In this document: positions 36,097 through 38,873 of the stretch, piece after piece
Numbering within the stretch: the first letter of the stretch is position 1
Layout: each line of letters starts with the position of its first letter
DNA from: Escherichia phage 92CQ
Length of the DNA stretch: 64,000 nt
Reading direction: 5' to 3' (one strand)
Sequence record: PV682554.1
Program-made: the position numbers and the translations under genes
The notes under the pieces: generated by a model
The model's input: the letters and a program-made list of their open reading frames with translations, nothing else
Told to the model about the DNA's origin: nothing
The model's database searches: none

Positions 36097-36172
36097 GGTT
36101 CCATAGCTCACTGACGAGAGCGCACACCTCATAAGTGTCGAGGGCAGGGATTGTAACCCTGGGGAACCACCA
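36097..36172 (+). tRNA. tRNA-Met/Ile2 (anticodon CAT), non-canonical D and T loops
   Basis: Cloverleaf folds by hand: acceptor GGTTCCA/GGGAACC, D-stem GCTC/GAGC, anticodon loop cTCATAa, T-stem CAGGG/CCCTG, CCA encoded; D-loop lacks GG and T-loop is ATTGTAA. Confidence 0.5.
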
Positions 36173-36203
36173 TTTAAAAGGAGGTGCTATGCATCTCCTA
36201 TAT

Positions 36204-36289
36204 GCAAGTGTGGTGGAATTGGTGATACACATTGTGCTTAAAACGCAACGCTTAAATGATTGAGGGTTCGAATCCCTCCACTTGCACCA
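36204..36289 (+). tRNA. tRNA-Leu (anticodon TAA), type II
   Basis: Acceptor GCAAGTG/CACTTGC, anticodon loop cTTAAaa, long variable arm, T-loop TTCGAAT, CCA encoded. Confidence 0.7.
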
Positions 36290-36331
36290 ACCTAGGCTTC
36301 AATTTAAATAATATTTTTAGTAAAAAATATC

Positions 36332-36360
36332 TTGACATCTACTTAGTTTTTTGTTATAGT
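36332..36360 (+). promoter_or_regulatory. sigma70-like promoter TTGACA-N17-TATAGT
   Basis: cTTGACAtctacttagttttttgtTATAGT inside the tRNA cluster. Confidence 0.55.
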
Positions 36361-36371
36361 TATTGTGAAAA

Positions 36372-36453
36372 CGGGGTGTATCTCACCTGACTTCTAATCA
36401 GGCGTTAACCGAGTAATTGGAGTATGCAGGTTCGAATCCTGTCACCCCGACCA
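36372..36453 (+). tRNA. tRNA-like element, atypical (candidate anticodon TCT; possible pseudogene)
   Basis: Acceptor CGGGGTG/CACCCCG, T-arm GCAGG-TTCGAAT-CCTGT and perfect anticodon-type hairpin CCTGA-cTTCTAa-TCAGG, but only about 7 nt where the D-arm should be and a long variable region. Confidence 0.3.
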
Positions 36454-36471
36454 AAAAGTTTTAAAAACTAC

Positions 36472-36501
36472 TTGACAAGCAAGATAGTTTTATGTTAGAG
36501 T
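36472..36501 (+). promoter_or_regulatory. sigma70-like promoter TTGACA-N18-TAGAGT
   Basis: cTTGACAagcaagatagttttatgtTAGAGT. Confidence 0.45.
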
Positions 36502-36516
36502 TAAAATATGATAACG

Positions 36517-36606
36517 GGAAGGTAGGGCGCAGCGGTGCGCAACCAGGTTTGAACCCTGGCCCATTGTAGCGATACGGTGATGGTTCGACTCCATTATCTT
36601 CCTCCA
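36517..36606 (+). tRNA. tRNA-Ser (anticodon TGA), type II
   Basis: Anticodon hairpin CCAGG-tTTGAac-CCTGG, long variable arm, T-loop TTCGACT, discriminator T, CCA encoded. Confidence 0.6.
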
Positions 36607-36618
36607 AATTCAACTAGG

Positions 36619-36796
36619 AAAAGATTCCGGTTGTTTTGAATAATTAAGAACGGTAGATTGGTGAAATGGTAGCCACAACAGTTTGCTAAACTGTCGTCGG
36701 AAACGGCGTGTAGGTTCAAGTCCTACATCTACCGCCAAGTTATCTTTAATGTAGCTTGTACTCTTACTTTAGCAGAGTAAATCTTCGGCAAGTGGC
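36619..36796 (+). repeat. direct repeat copy 1 (178 bp; contains tRNA-Ser GCT)
   Basis: Identical by hand alignment to 36924..37101; period 305 bp. Confidence 0.8.
36652..36737 (+). tRNA. tRNA-Ser (anticodon GCT), type II, copy 1
   Basis: Acceptor GGTAGAT/ATCTACC, anticodon hairpin ACAGT-tTGCTaa-ACTGT, variable arm CGTCGGAAACGGCGT, T-arm GTAGG-TTCAAGT-CCTAC, discriminator G, CCA encoded. Confidence 0.75.
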
Positions 36797-36923
36797 TGAA
36801 TTATAAAACTATTGGACAGGTTGTTACCGGAGTTAAGATTGTAGATAATAAAGTTGTTTATGAGTATTCTAATCTTCAACAATCTGAAGATGGTAAAAAT
36901 ATTCGTATGGTAAAAGCAGAACA

Positions 36924-37101
36924 AAAAGATTCCGGTTGTTTTGAATAATTAAGAACGGTAGATTGGTGAAATGGTAGCCACAACAGTTTGCTAAACTGTC
37001 GTCGGAAACGGCGTGTAGGTTCAAGTCCTACATCTACCGCCAAGTTATCTTTAATGTAGCTTGTACTCTTACTTTAGCAGAGTAAATCTTCGGCAAGTGG
37101 C
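36924..37101 (+). repeat. direct repeat copy 2 (178 bp; contains tRNA-Ser GCT)
   Basis: Identical to 36619..36796. Confidence 0.8.
36957..37042 (+). tRNA. tRNA-Ser (anticodon GCT), type II, copy 2
   Basis: Sequence-identical duplicate of the gene at 36652. Confidence 0.75.
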
Positions 37102-37168
37102 AGTAACCACTTTACCGATATCCCATAGTCAAGTGCCGCAAACACTGGCTATTTTAAAGATAATTTAT

Positions 37169-37244
37169 ACATCGTTAGCTTAGTTGGTAGAGCAAGGGGC
37201 TTTTAACTCCAAGGTCGAAGGTTCGAATCCTTCACGATGTACCA
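37169..37244 (+). tRNA. tRNA-Lys (anticodon TTT)
   Basis: Acceptor ACATCGT/ACGATGT, D-arm GCTT-AGTTGGTA-GAGC, anticodon loop cTTTTaa, T-arm GAAGG-TTCGAAT-CCTTC, CCA encoded. Confidence 0.75.
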
Positions 37245-37249
37245 AACAC

Positions 37250-37336
37250 GTAGGTATCGCATAGAGGCAATTGCTGGAGACTGTAAATCTCTTGCCCTTC
37301 GGGGCTTCGTTGGTTCGAGTCCAACTACCTGCACCA
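37250..37336 (+). tRNA. tRNA-Tyr (anticodon GTA), type II
   Basis: Anticodon hairpin GGAGA-cTGTAaa-TCTCT, variable arm TGCCCTTCGGGGCTTC, T-arm GTTGG-TTCGAGT-CCAAC, CCA encoded. Confidence 0.7.
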
Positions 37337-37343
37337 AATTAAA

Positions 37344-37428
37344 GATGGATTGGCCTAGTGGTTGGGCGACGGACTGTTAATCCGTGAACGAAAGTTCTAG
37401 CAAGGTTCAAATCCTTGATCCATCGCCA
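37344..37428 (+). tRNA. type II tRNA with anticodon GTT (Asn codons) and Ser-like architecture
   Basis: Acceptor GATGGAT/ATCCATC, 3-bp D-stem GCC/GGC, perfect anticodon hairpin ACGGA-cTGTTaa-TCCGT, 15-nt variable hairpin GAAC-GAAA-GTTC, T-loop TTCAAAT, discriminator G, CCA encoded. Confidence 0.55.
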
Positions 37429-37582: not shown

Positions 37583-37605
37583 ATTTTAACTCTAAAGGAG
37601 TGTAT

Positions 37606-37929
37606 GTGACAGAAAAAGAGTTAGAGAAATATTTTAATATCAATGTTTTCGATGGTTTTGATGACATTGAAGATGTTGAAAGATATTATGAAGTAGAGTT
37701 AGATAAGGATAACATTGTAATTCTTTCTGCCACTTATGATTGTGCATATTATGAAGGTGAATCTCACGTTTATTTTTATGATATGAAAACATCTTTGTTT
37801 TATGAAGTACACGCATATCATTGTTCTTGCTATGGCTTAGAAGGTCAATGGGAACCTGAAGAAATAGGTGATTTGGACTTTACTGTTGCATATCTAAACA
37901 GACGTGGTGCATCTACTATTTTAAAATAA
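37606..37929 (+). CDS. hypothetical acidic protein
   Basis: ORF embedded in the tRNA cluster; probable GTG start 5 nt after AAGGAG (the in-frame ATG is followed by TGA). Confidence 0.4.
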   Translation: MTEKELEKYFNINVFDGFDDIEDVERYYEVELDKDNIVILSATYDCAYYEGESHVYFYDMKTSLFYEVHAYHCSCYGLEGQWEPEEIGDLDFTVAYLNRRGASTILK

Positions 37930-37943
37930 ATATCAAAAGCCTC

Positions 37944-37973
37944 TTGACAAAGGGGCTAATAATATGTTAGAGT
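37944..37973 (+). promoter_or_regulatory. sigma70-like promoter TTGACA-N18-TAGAGT
   Basis: cTTGACAaaggggctaataatatgtTAGAGT upstream of tRNA-Gly. Confidence 0.5.
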
Positions 37974-37984
37974 AATATTGTTAA

Positions 37985-38059
37985 GCGGGTATAGTGTTAA
38001 TGGTAGCATATGAGGTTTCCACCCTCCAGGTGCAGGTTCAAGTCCTGTTACTCGCTCCA
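37985..38059 (+). tRNA. tRNA-Gly (anticodon TCC)
   Basis: Acceptor GCGGGTA/TACTCGC, anticodon loop tTTCCac, T-arm GCAGG-TTCAAGT-CCTGT, CCA encoded. Confidence 0.65.
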
Positions 38060-38157
38060 AGATTATTTAAATGGAATCGCTAGAGAAAATTTCTCTTTTC
38101 GCTCATGGTTTTCTCCTTCAAACTCTAGCGGTTCTTTTTAAGTGATTTTAGTTTTAT

Positions 38158-38232
38158 TGGAGATTAGCCTAGTGGGAAGGCAACGGCCTTTGAAGTCGTG
38201 ATGACTAGGTTCGATTCCTAGATCTCCAGCCA
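38158..38232 (+). tRNA. tRNA-Gln (anticodon TTG)
   Basis: Acceptor TGGAGAT/ATCTCCA, anticodon hairpin ACGGC-cTTTGaa-GTCGT, T-arm CTAGG-TTCGATT-CCTAG, CCA encoded. Confidence 0.75.
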
Positions 38233-38239
38233 AGATTTA

Positions 38240-38315
38240 CAGTGCGTAGCGCAGTTGGTAGCGTGGGAGCTTTGGATGCTTCAGGTCGCAGGTTCGAGTC
38301 CTGCCGCACTGACCA
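38240..38315 (+). tRNA. tRNA-Pro (anticodon TGG)
   Basis: Acceptor CAGTGCG/CGCACTG, D-arm GCGC-AGTTGGTA-GCGT, anticodon hairpin GGAGC-tTTGGat-GCTTC, T-loop TTCGAGT, CCA encoded. Confidence 0.75.
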
Positions 38316-38320
38316 AATTT

Positions 38321-38395
38321 GCAGAGATAGCTGAGACGGATTAGTGCTACCCTGAAAAGGTAGAAAGGATGGATCGTTACCATCTCTCTGCACCA
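38321..38395 (+). tRNA. tRNA-Phe (anticodon GAA)
   Basis: Acceptor GCAGAGA/TCTCTGC, anticodon hairpin CTACC-cTGAAaa-GGTAG, T-arm GATGG-ATCGTTA-CCATC (unusual T-loop), CCA encoded. Confidence 0.65.
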
Positions 38396-38472
38396 AATAA
38401 CACCATCCAAGGAGTAGACTTGGTTAACTGTCAATAGCACATTGAGGCTTCTTACAGTGGTGTACTTATTAT

Positions 38473-38557
38473 GGCTAAGTGGTGGAATGGTATACACGAT
38501 ACGCTTAGAACGTATTGCCCCAAGGGATTGTGAGTTCGAGTCTCACCTTAGCTACCA
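38473..38557 (+). tRNA. tRNA-Leu (anticodon TAG), type II
   Basis: Anticodon hairpin ATACG-cTTAGaa-CGTAT, long variable arm, T-arm GTGAG-TTCGAGT-CTCAC, discriminator A, CCA encoded. Confidence 0.7.
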
Positions 38558-38572
38558 AATTACTACAGAATG

Positions 38573-38651
38573 CGCGGGATAGAGGAGTCTGGTCGTCCTC
38601 GCCAGTTTCATATGCTGGAGATCGTAGGTTCAAATCCTACTCCCGCCTCCA
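38573..38651 (+). tRNA. tRNA-Met/Ile2 (anticodon CAT)
   Basis: D-arm GAGG-AGTCTGGTCGT-CCTC, anticodon hairpin CCAGT-tTCATat-GCTGG, T-arm GTAGG-TTCAAAT-CCTAC, position 1-72 unpaired (C/C), CCA encoded. Confidence 0.6.
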
Positions 38652-38709
38652 ATAAATACCTCCCTTCTGGTGTAATGATTAAGTTACATTGACACTTCAA
38701 GGAACTCAT

Positions 38710-38792
38710 AGCCGGGTAGATTTAAAAGAGTATGGTACTCAATATGGCTCCAAACCATAGATCAAGGGGTTCGATTCCTCACCTTGCTGCCA
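38710..38792 (+). tRNA. tRNA-Trp-like (anticodon CCA), atypical 5' half
   Basis: Standard anticodon hairpin TATGG-cTCCAaa-CCATA, T-arm AGGGG-TTCGATT-CCTCA, acceptor 3' strand and CCA; 5' half is 7 nt too long with one acceptor mismatch. Confidence 0.35.
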
Positions 38793-38797
38793 ATTAT

Positions 38798-38873
38798 TGT
38801 GGTATCGTACAGATGGTTAGTACACTCGACCGATAATCGAGAAACAACGGTTCGACTCCGTTTACCACGACCA
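38798..38873 (+). tRNA. tRNA-Ile (anticodon GAT)
   Basis: Acceptor TGTGGTA/TACCACG, D-arm GTAC-AGATGGTTA-GTAC, anticodon hairpin CTCGA-cCGATaa-TCGAG, T-arm AACGG-TTCGACT-CCGTT, CCA encoded. Confidence 0.75.

Follow-up and report, generated by a model that had tools for sequence, protein, structure and literature searches.

A candidate arginine tRNA with a rewired core in the tRNA gene cluster of a phi92-like Escherichia phage

Between positions 36,097 and 38,873 of a 64,000-nucleotide stretch of Escherichia phage 92CQ (PV682554.1; the whole stretch is called the window below), transfer RNA (tRNA) genes follow one another on a single strand, and two elements with anticodons TCT and CCA stand out by their non-standard cores. 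Bacterial tRNAs are held to be cloverleaves without exception. The question raised by this locus is whether these two elements are tRNA genes and, if so, for which amino acids. Of the whole cluster, these two are the part from which most can be learned. The cluster itself, which belongs to a phi92-like (Justusliebigvirus) E. coli myovirus, is real, ordinary and already known. Its TCT member, as judged from comparative sequence analysis, appears to belong to an unrecognised, widespread and arginine-specific family with a rewired core.

The TCT element and its rewired family

The alignment of the TCT element to the Rfam tRNA model (RF00005) is obtained at the cost of a deleted D arm (15 model positions are reduced to 4 nt) and of 20 nt inserted in the variable region. 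Its layout can be described as follows. The acceptor strands (36372-78 with 36443-49) are followed on the 5' side by U8, A9 and U (36379-81). Then comes CTC (36382-84), the 5' strand of a helix termed here P2, followed by A 36385 and by the anticodon hairpin (stem 36386-90 with 36398-402, loop CTTCTAA at 36391-97, anticodon at 36393-95). A bulge, CGTTAACC (36403-10), lies between the anticodon stem and the 3' strand of P2 (GAG, 36411-13). A D-loop-like linker, TAATTGGAGTAT (36414-25), then leads to the T arm (36426-42), the acceptor 3' strand, A73 (36450) and CCA (36451-53).

Full-length homologues were found by BLAST well beyond the genus, in Felixounavirus (84-87% identity), jumbo Asteriusvirus such as 121Q, Klebsiella Mydovirus and Streptomyces phages. 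Their first alignment revealed many compensatory exchanges in the stems of the acceptor and the anticodon arm, beside invariant loops. Two exact-pattern scans of IMG/VR were performed, one with the anticodon loop plus CGTTAA...GTAA fixed, the other with GTAA(n)TGGAGTATG...GTTCGA fixed and the anticodon left free. Together with the GenBank loci, they yielded at least 70 distinct family sequences, to which the following counts refer. The family order is acceptor 5' strand, U8 A9 U, P2 5' strand, N and anticodon hairpin, then a 7-8-nt bulge CGUUAAYN, P2 3' strand, UAA(n)UGGAGUAU, T arm, acceptor 3' strand and N73, with CCA encoded in 47 of the 70 members. The 7-bp acceptor, the 5-bp anticodon stem with its 7-nt loop and the 5-bp T stem all covary and are 95-99% paired. 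The loop consensus is YUNNNAM for the anticodon loop (with U33 and a purine at 37) and UUCGANY for the T loop, which is of TPsiC type. Over the 79-column alignment, 94.5% of the cells are paired (64% in shuffles), and the covariation score of 0.78 (vs 0.19) was reached by none of 500 shuffles. Changes on both sides are observed in 18 of the 21 pairs, and sliding the partner strands lowers pairing to 33-45%.

The main departure from the cloverleaf concerns the D arm. No local hairpin of positions 9-26 closes a G18 G19 loop. The P2 5' strand (columns 11-13) pairs instead with columns 40-42, past the anticodon hairpin, and the GG lies 3' of P2. Nine P2 combinations are observed with zero mismatches: CUC/GAG (39), CGC/GCG (12), CAC/GUG, CAG/CUG, CAU/AUG and CGG/CCG (4 each), and CUU/AAG, CGU/ACG and CCC/GGG (once each). 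The two inner pairs were not required by the filter used to extract the family, and neither has any unpaired cell: columns 12-41 are UA in 40 sequences, GC in 17, AU in 12 and CG in one, and columns 13-40 are CG in 56, GC in 8 and UA in 6. Columns 14-39 alternate between A.C, C.A, C-G, A-U and U.G and thus behave as an isosteric non-canonical pair, which would form a fourth P2 layer. A fourth Watson-Crick pair at these columns was rejected, since 54 of the 70 are non-standard and mutual information shows A.C/C.A alternating with standard pairs. A variable-region hairpin, CCGA-GUAA-UUGG, obtained by hand folding and also as the minimum free energy fold of the single sequence, was discarded because columns 46-48 show no covariation with columns 38-41. 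The evidence for P2 is covariation, in the form of pair counts and mutual information, and with P2 included the family RNA is predicted to be a three-way junction and not a cloverleaf.

A covariance model built from the family (R1) gives 79-101 bits to its members and at most 34 bits to ordinary tRNAs. The intermediate matches correspond to more divergent versions of the rewired layout. This conservation has to be set against the possibility of a decaying tRNA pseudogene, or of a fragment left by deletion of the D arm, which is suggested by the failure of ARAGORN to detect the element, by the lack of annotation in most records (one has 'tRNA-OTHER') and by the pseudo flags of neighbouring genes in phi92. 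Such a relic would not be expected as 70 distinct sequences in unrelated phage lineages, with four helices kept by compensatory changes, P2 free of mismatches and invariant loops. The homologues are not recent copies of a single sequence either (the mean column identity of the alignment is 79%), and the window copy has its own strong promoter-like site. The covariation excludes decay, which we therefore hold to be extremely improbable.

The rewired family is essentially phage-restricted. Among 185,579 bacterial and archaeal species genomes, only three of 35 pattern matches were real, all of them on contigs of metagenome-assembled genomes. The others were mostly chance matches, many of them in one recurring cyanobacterial sequence that looks protein-coding. 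No match was found among 5,426 complete E. coli genomes. Existing labels are 'tRNA-OTHER' in phage VivaForever, Leu(taa) in 121Q and a wrong-strand 'tRNA' in VpaE1_ev035, and most other records have nothing annotated at the site. On some viral contigs there are two or even three rewired Arg tRNAs, which differ in their arginine anticodons: UCU, GCG and UCG in L048 (478-555, 3326-3402, 3407-3493), UCU and ACG in L079 (2689-2763, 4029-4107), CCU and UCU in L099 (12999-13077, 13348-13426), and UCG and UCU in L095 (3788-3865, 4087-4164). Divergent rewired copies have a shorter bulge, and one of them an extra hairpin in the linker.

The assignment to arginine comes from the anticodons and from N73. 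The scan with a free anticodon returned the loops CUUCUAA/C or UUUCUAA/C (UCU), UUCCUAA (CCU) and CUUCGAA (UCG), and UCU, CCU and UCG are the only anticodons among the 70 members. Four divergent variants retrieved with R1 carry ACG, GCG, UCG and UCU. An arginine anticodon is thus present in all 74 sequences, with C35 invariant. Position 73 is G in 33 members, A in 32 (including the window element), U in 4 and C in one. The D-loop-like linker after P2, A-A-Y-U-G-G-A (UAAnUGGAGUAU), has GG and then A, in the order of G18 G19 A20. An A directly follows this GG in 69 of the 70 members and in all four variants, and it could match A20 in space. The bacterial arginine identity set consists of A/G73, A20, C35 and U/G36, A20 being the main determinant for E. 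coli ArgRS (PMC9976931). Since its anticodons and N73 fit this set, the family is read as an arginine tRNA.

The other tRNA genes found beside the element are informative too. In the loci of the 102 records that contain it, the other arginine calls of ARAGORN are ACG (18), GCG (4), TCG (4) and TCT (3). At least two of these do not stand for separate canonical genes: in L048, the GCG call results from a forced fold over a rewired variant, and in L099 the TCT call probably corresponds to the UCU variant. More generally, ARAGORN 'tRNA-Arg' calls overlapping family members were rejected as forced folds that draw on flanking sequence. TCT calls are rare beside the element in clusters of 20-28 tRNAs, which suggests that the element fills the UCU slot there. 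No other arginine tRNA is present in the window, and AGA is its most host-mismatched codon. The TCT element is accordingly best described as a putative tRNA-Arg(UCU) from an arginine-specific phage family with a rewired core; this structure is strongly supported by covariation, and a function in translation is well motivated.

How could such an RNA work? The 3-nt strand right after U8-A9-U would pair 3' of the anticodon hairpin, so that the anticodon arm would be nested inside the position of the D stem, and the D-loop-like UAAnUGGAGUAU would then join P2 to a normal T arm. Compared to the cloverleaf, two segments would be swapped, namely the D-stem strand with the D loop, and the partner strand with the anticodon arm and the variable region. 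P2 and its 14.39 layer could stack on the anticodon stem, like the D stem with the 26.44 pair, so that the arm would be about as long as in a normal tRNA. Contact between the GG and the T loop would remain possible, and the following A could still face ArgRS. Because the acceptor/T branch is of the standard 7/5 type without linker, RNase P, the CCA surveillance and EF-Tu should meet a normal minihelix. Processing by RNase P would be followed by charging by the host ArgRS, through C35, U36, A/G73 and the A after GG, and by decoding of AGA, the codon most over-used with respect to the host. Whether the element is indeed a working arginine tRNA, charged by the host ArgRS and used by the ribosome, is in our estimate an evenly balanced matter. 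It would then be the first natural non-cloverleaf tRNA in bacterial translation, with an effectively permuted D/anticodon domain, specific for arginine only, spread horizontally among unrelated phages and missed by annotation.

Several known tRNA types can be compared to this family. Canonical tRNA-Arg(UCU) (E. coli argU and its T4 counterpart) has an identical anticodon loop, CUUCUAA, a 7-bp acceptor, a 5-bp T stem with a UUCGAAU-type loop, A/G73 and CCA, and the UGGA motif of the phage family resembles its D-loop G18 G19 A20. In contrast, the phage family lacks the D hairpin: what follows U8-A9 is paired with a strand 3' of the anticodon hairpin, and the GG-A comes after P2 rather than within a D loop. 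The metazoan D-armless mitochondrial tRNAs, such as that for Ser(AGY) (PMC9427863, PMC4013460), also have a three-helix layout without D hairpin. They differ, however, by a short unpaired connector, eroded T/D loop signatures and mitochondrial factors that co-evolved with them. In the phage family, a helix resembling the D stem is retained, covaries and encloses the anticodon arm; the canonical T arm and the GG are retained as well, and the genes of the family would have to work with ordinary bacterial factors. The presence of a covarying P2 and the location of the genes in phage genomes thus set it apart from the mitochondrial D-armless class. The 8/4 and 9/3 allo-tRNAs (PMC5389517) are likewise non-standard, were mined from genomes and metagenomes and are found in some phages, but they are four-armed cloverleaves with altered acceptor/T lengths. 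The phage family is standard on that side (7/5) and rewired on the D/anticodon side. Finally, the question whether bacterial translation can use a non-cloverleaf tRNA has been asked with engineered E. coli tRNAs of non-canonical fold in a 2024 paper, which states that bacterial translation is not known to use any natural tRNA whose fold diverges from the cloverleaf (PMC11551756). Those molecules are man-made, whereas the phage family would be a natural candidate. No description of a phage tRNA of the rewired type was found in the literature consulted, which was mostly open-access, so that an earlier report may exist elsewhere.

The CCA element and the mimicry alternative

The second unusual element has lost no arm, as shown by a comparison with its homologues. 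The register proposed by the Rfam alignment (acceptor from 38729, D arm deleted) was rejected: homology to phages of three subfamilies begins at 38708-38710, not at the Rfam start, and homology and covariation from 38710 onwards support a real D hairpin. The acceptor (AGCCGGG with CCTTGCT) then has an A1-U72 pair and a C.U mismatch at 4-69. An 11-nt connector, TAGATTTAAAA (RNA UAGAUUUAAAA), is found between acceptor and D stems, where 2 nt are normal in tRNAs. It is followed by a short D hairpin (GAGU-AUGGU-ACUC), an anticodon stem (UAUGG with CCAUA) with the loop CUCCAAA and its anticodon at 38750-52, a 5-nt variable loop, a T arm, G73 and CCA. With eight distinct homologues, 92% of the cells are paired, compared to 44-58% in slid controls, and seven pairs, across all four helices, change on both sides. 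A1-U72, G73 and the CCA anticodon, which are the identity elements of E. coli TrpRS, are present in all eight sequences, and the loop is CUCCAAA (UUCCAAA in POP15). A pattern scan of IMG/VR for this family brought almost no gain (6 loci, one of them spurious). The element is unannotated in every record examined. We interpret it as a conserved tRNA-Trp(CCA) with an 11-nt connector, with a presumed role in translation.

Both elements could alternatively be non-decoding tRNA mimics, acting as decoys or sponges for tRNA-targeting nucleases or toxins, or else as processing or regulatory elements of the polycistronic transcript. In favour of such mimics, the cores are non-canonical, and several further tRNAs of the cluster are structurally deviant. 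The cluster also contains Lys, Tyr and Asn tRNAs, and the host tRNAs for these amino acids are well-known substrates of anticodon nucleases. The Trp-like gene, for its part, is left unexplained by codon compensation, since TGG is not over-used by the phage (0.91x). A decoy, however, needs no intact 7-bp acceptor, canonical T arm, A/G73 or encoded CCA, nor would it account for anticodon variation that is confined to the arginine box around an invariant C35. In tRNA-rich clusters, the TCT element fills the slot of the missing arginine isoacceptor, and the codon concerned, AGA, is the most host-mismatched one. Mimicry therefore appears improbable to us, and the two elements are treated below as putative tRNA-Arg(UCU) and tRNA-Trp(CCA) genes.

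The two types of odd genes also share a neighbour. A tRNA-Ser(UGA) gene adjoins the rewired Arg gene in 121Q (L006:105-280), as well as the Trp-like gene in Hafnia and LPML1 phages (L081, L082). Small modules of such odd tRNA genes seem to be exchanged between unrelated phages.

Composition, signals and relatives of the cluster

The coordinates of the tRNA genes and of the other features of the interval are listed in Table 1. In the whole window, ARAGORN detects 16 tRNA genes, all on the + strand and between 36097 and 38873. Their anticodons (CAT, TAA, TGA, GCT twice, TTT, GTA, GTT, TGT, TCC, TTG, TGG, GAA, TAG, CAT, GAT) are exactly the sixteen that a previous sequence-only reading of this DNA had listed. 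That reading proposed a cluster of 18 genes, which is borne out by the addition of the TCT element through Rfam (40 bits) and of the CCA element through homologues and covariation. It also held that every gene has a genomic 3' CCA, and N73-CCA is indeed encoded after all 18 elements. A covariance-model scan, which it had put forward as a refuting test, confirmed the majority of the candidates. At the gathering score (29 bits for RF00005, 47 bits for the tRNA-Sec model), Rfam gives 15 tRNA matches of 40-69 bits, 14 of which coincide with ARAGORN genes (47.7-68.9 bits), the other being the TCT element (36372-36450). The CCA element, at 22.9 bits, is under the cut-off, and the best score of Ser(TGA), 35.3 bits, is obtained on the tRNA-Sec model, also under its cut-off. 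Both CAT candidates of the earlier reading are called by ARAGORN, but the first one lacks confirmation by a covariance model: searched alone, it had no Rfam tRNA match even at E<=10. No diverged homologues of it were found; it is labelled tRNA-Met in phage Paula. As to the TCT and CCA elements, they had been called atypical, which is right for their cores, yet they look like conserved, covarying tRNA genes and not noise.

Table 1. Features of the tRNA gene cluster and its surroundings in the window (ORF, open reading frame)
Feature	Coordinates	Strand	Basis or remarks
Promoter-like TTGACA-18-TAAGAT, TG upstream (extended -10)	35763..35792	+	before small ORF 35823-36089 and first tRNA gene
tRNA(CAT) #1, Met or Ile2	36097..36172	+	ARAGORN; T loop ATTGTAA, D loop without GG
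tRNA-Leu(TAA)	36204..36289	+	ARAGORN, Rfam
Promoter-like TTGACA-17-TGtTATAGT	36332..36360	+	~11 nt upstream of Arg-like gene
Putative tRNA-Arg(UCU), core-rewired	36372..36453	+	Rfam 40 bits; family covariation; covariance model R1 98.4 bits
Promoter-like TTGACA-18-TGtTAGAGT	36472..36501	+	before Ser(TGA)
tRNA-Ser(TGA), 90 nt, long variable arm weakly paired	36517..36606	+	ARAGORN
Tandem duplication, 305-bp spacing, 178-bp perfect repeats 36619-36796 / 36924-37101	36619..37101	+	carries both Ser(GCT)
tRNA-Ser(GCT) copy a	36652..36737	+	ARAGORN, Rfam
tRNA-Ser(GCT) copy b	36957..37042	+	ARAGORN, Rfam
tRNA-Lys(TTT)	37169..37244	+	ARAGORN, Rfam
tRNA-Tyr(GTA)	37250..37336	+	ARAGORN, Rfam
tRNA-Asn(GTT), 85 nt	37344..37428	+	ARAGORN, Rfam
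tRNA-Thr(TGT)	37508..37582	+	ARAGORN, Rfam
Embedded ORF, 107 aa, GTG start, AAGGAG upstream, function not assigned	37606..37929	+	phi92 gp112 homologue; phrog_8792
Promoter-like TTGACA-18-TGtTAGAGT	37944..37973	+	before Gly(TCC)
tRNA-Gly(TCC)	37985..38059	+	ARAGORN, Rfam
tRNA-Gln(TTG)	38158..38232	+	ARAGORN, Rfam
tRNA-Pro(TGG)	38240..38315	+	ARAGORN, Rfam
tRNA-Phe(GAA), T loop ATCGTTA	38321..38395	+	ARAGORN, Rfam
tRNA-Leu(TAG)	38473..38557	+	ARAGORN, Rfam
tRNA(CAT) #2, 79 nt, long D loop, C1xC72 mismatch	38573..38651	+	ARAGORN, Rfam
Putative tRNA-Trp(CCA)-like	38710..38792	+	Rfam 22.9 bits; homologues, covariation
tRNA-Ile(GAT)	38798..38873	+	ARAGORN, Rfam

Sixteen genes have a cloverleaf layout, with deviations in tRNA(CAT) #1, Phe, Asn, tRNA(CAT) #2 and Ser(TGA). 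The T loops of tRNA(CAT) #1 and Phe start with A and have U at their fifth position (A54...U58 instead of U54...A58). The class-II features of bacterial tRNAs are normally confined to Leu, Ser and Tyr. The tRNA-Asn(GUU) is class-II-like, with a 3-bp D stem, a 4-bp variable arm (GAAC-GAAA-GUUC) and G73. It is conserved (75-100% identity) in Justusliebigvirus, Phapecoctavirus, Seunavirus-like and some T5-like phages, whose records label it tRNA-Asn.

The locus is easily placed among known phages. The 3.4 kb around the cluster match 55 phage records over their full length at 96-98% identity, all from phi92-like E. coli myoviruses (Justusliebigvirus, Stephanstirmvirinae). With phi92 (NC_023693), identity amounts to 96.9% across 100% of the query, and the order of tRNA and flanking genes is identical. 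The flanks themselves are also as in phi92, with nicotinamide phosphoribosyltransferase (NAMPT) upstream, and an Rz-like spanin and the large terminase downstream. The phi92 record has 16 tRNA features annotated in the matching stretch, Ser(TGA) and Phe being labelled as pseudo and tRNA(CAT) #1 as 'hypothetical tRNA'. The 2025 description of phage BME3, another Justusliebigvirus, reports 16 tRNA genes with the identical anticodon set, without Arg or Trp (PMC12210895). Annotated in phi92 and published with the same 16 anticodons, the cluster as such is therefore already known. The window differs from phi92 by the tandem duplication of Ser(GCT) and by the absence of an insertion with gp113 between Gly and Gln. 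The Arg-like and Trp-like genes are missing from the tRNA lists of phi92, Eryne, Paula and BME3.

The duplication had passed unmentioned in the sequence-only reading: the two Ser(GCT) genes are copies within the perfect direct repeat, and phi92 and Eryne have a single copy of the duplicated unit. Its junction turns the ATG of the phi92 gp111 homologue into CTG, which leaves this small ORF without a start in the window. Other small differences are seen among relatives. Some close ones have an HNH endonuclease gene under the 3.4-kb match (ALITA PP359570, VEcB NC_052663, PATM OX090893), and in Paula a third tRNA-Met gene lies between Leu(TAG) and tRNA(CAT) #2. Small insertions recur in this cluster, which is a hot spot for them. 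Several records of about 146 kb named 'Campylobacter phage' (A150, A145, C3, A110a) are 99-100% identical to this E. coli phage cluster and are probably mislabelled or co-isolated phi92-like coliphages.

Three of the promoter-like sites of Table 1 lie inside the cluster, in line with the earlier proposal of at least three internal TTGACA-N17/18-TAGAGT/TATAGT promoters. The extended -10 motif TTGACA-N14/15-TGnTAnnnT occurs 10 times in the window, compared to 0.16 expected from shuffles, which suggests a genome-wide class of host-polymerase promoters. Seven copies are outside the cluster (6476, 12424 and 26214 on the - strand; 32373, 35763, 42761 and 54952 on the + strand). The cluster would probably be transcribed by the host sigma70 RNA polymerase from one upstream and three internal extended -10 promoters. 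In the case of the Arg-like gene, the -10 ends 11 nt upstream, which predicts a leader of about 5 nt.

The embedded ORF, already noticed in the first reading, is conserved (E 6e-44 to phrog_8792) and has no significant sequence match in the PDB. Together with ORFs 35823-36089 and 38931-39254, it matches only PHROGs of unknown function, and these three ORFs gave no Pfam match above cut-off and no PADLOC match. Several spacers fold far better than shuffles. The spacer at 36173-36203, between tRNA(CAT) #1 and Leu, forms a 9-bp hairpin, AGGAGGUGC-UAU-GCAUCUCCU (z-score -4.6), which is a bidirectional terminator in the Paula annotation and has no clear U tract in the window. The Ser-Lys spacer (37043-37168) adopts a multibranched fold with 11 bp in its closing stem (z -4.0). 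The Asn-Thr spacer (37429-37507), with a closing stem and a T-arm-like hairpin, GTAGG-TATCAAA-TCCTAC, resembles a degraded tRNA. In the Gly-Gln spacer (38060-38157), about 24 bp form a long and imperfect hairpin (-27.3 kcal/mol, z -5.0). This hairpin may serve as a processing site of RNase III type or be the scar of a recombination; phi92 has a larger insert at this site, with gp113 ('rIII-like').

Codon supply and significance of the rewired family

What the cluster brings to the phage was approached through codon usage, as the earlier reading had recommended. Codons were counted in 63 long non-overlapping ORFs of the window (37% GC) and compared to an E. coli K-12 table with approximate values. 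The cluster tRNAs do match the codons over-used by the phage. The largest excess is that of AGA (12.6 per 1000 vs about 2.1 in E. coli, 6.0x), followed by ACA (4.0x), CTA (2.9x), TCT and ACT (2.6x each), ATA and CCT (2.4x each), then by GTA, CTT, AGT, CCA, GGA, TTA and CAA. AGA, ACA, CTA and ATA each have a matching phage tRNA, and the anticodons UCU, UGU, UAG, CAU, UGA, UGG, UCC, UAA, UUG and GCU match the enriched list well. The tRNA set fits the classical codon-compensation model, in which the cluster would supply decoders for A/U-ending codons that this phage uses far more than E. coli. The codon bias is directly observed, and a benefit to the phage may follow from it.

The cluster as a whole could also serve mainly anti-defence or self-sufficiency, by replacing host tRNAs lost to anticodon nucleases or to degradation in the course of infection, codon matching then being secondary. 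This is a recurrent theme for phage tRNAs (T5, T4 and mycobacteriophage work). It would account for the presence of Lys(UUU), Tyr(GUA) and Asn(GUU), whose codons are just 1-1.8x enriched, and many of the tRNAs of this phage are structurally unlike host tRNAs. On the other hand, the set closely tracks the host-mismatched codons, AGA, ACA, CTA and ATA, then TCA, CCA, GGA, TTA and CAA, and the small ORFs nearby showed no signature of defence or anti-defence proteins. We regard a mainly anti-defence role as possible but rather unlikely. It is not exclusive of codon compensation, and both may coexist.

Taken together, a phi92-like cluster with a rewired tRNA-Arg(UCU), a long-connector tRNA-Trp and a codon-supply role is the joint explanation that we favour, with good confidence. 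Several points weigh against parts of it. From the 70-sequence alignment, RNAalifold recovers the acceptor, anticodon and T helices, whereas P2 is absent from its prediction. The search patterns account for part of the loop invariance, although each scan left the anchor of the other free. The equivalence of GGA with G18 G19 A20 comes from sequence resemblance, and one member has GGC. ARAGORN calls the TCT element in just 3 of the 102 records holding it, and at two loci (L040 and L110) it calls a tRNA-Arg(UCU) in addition to the element. With eight sequences, the Trp-like family is small, and pair 4-69 of the acceptor is mismatched in five of them. The first tRNA(CAT) gene depends on ARAGORN, and the E. 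coli codon table behind the enrichment figures is approximate.

The cluster fits the standard picture of AT-rich phages that bring decoders for host-rare codons. The published tRNA sets of these genera contain no Arg(UCU) decoder, though AGA is the most host-mismatched codon. If confirmed, the rewired Arg family would expose a systematic blind spot in phage annotation, even in phi92 and the long-studied relatives of Felix O1. It would also offer a chassis for orthogonal tRNA engineering and show how ArgRS, RNase P, EF-Tu and the ribosome tolerate another core topology. It would, above all, be a natural counter-example to the universal cloverleaf, directly testable in E. coli.

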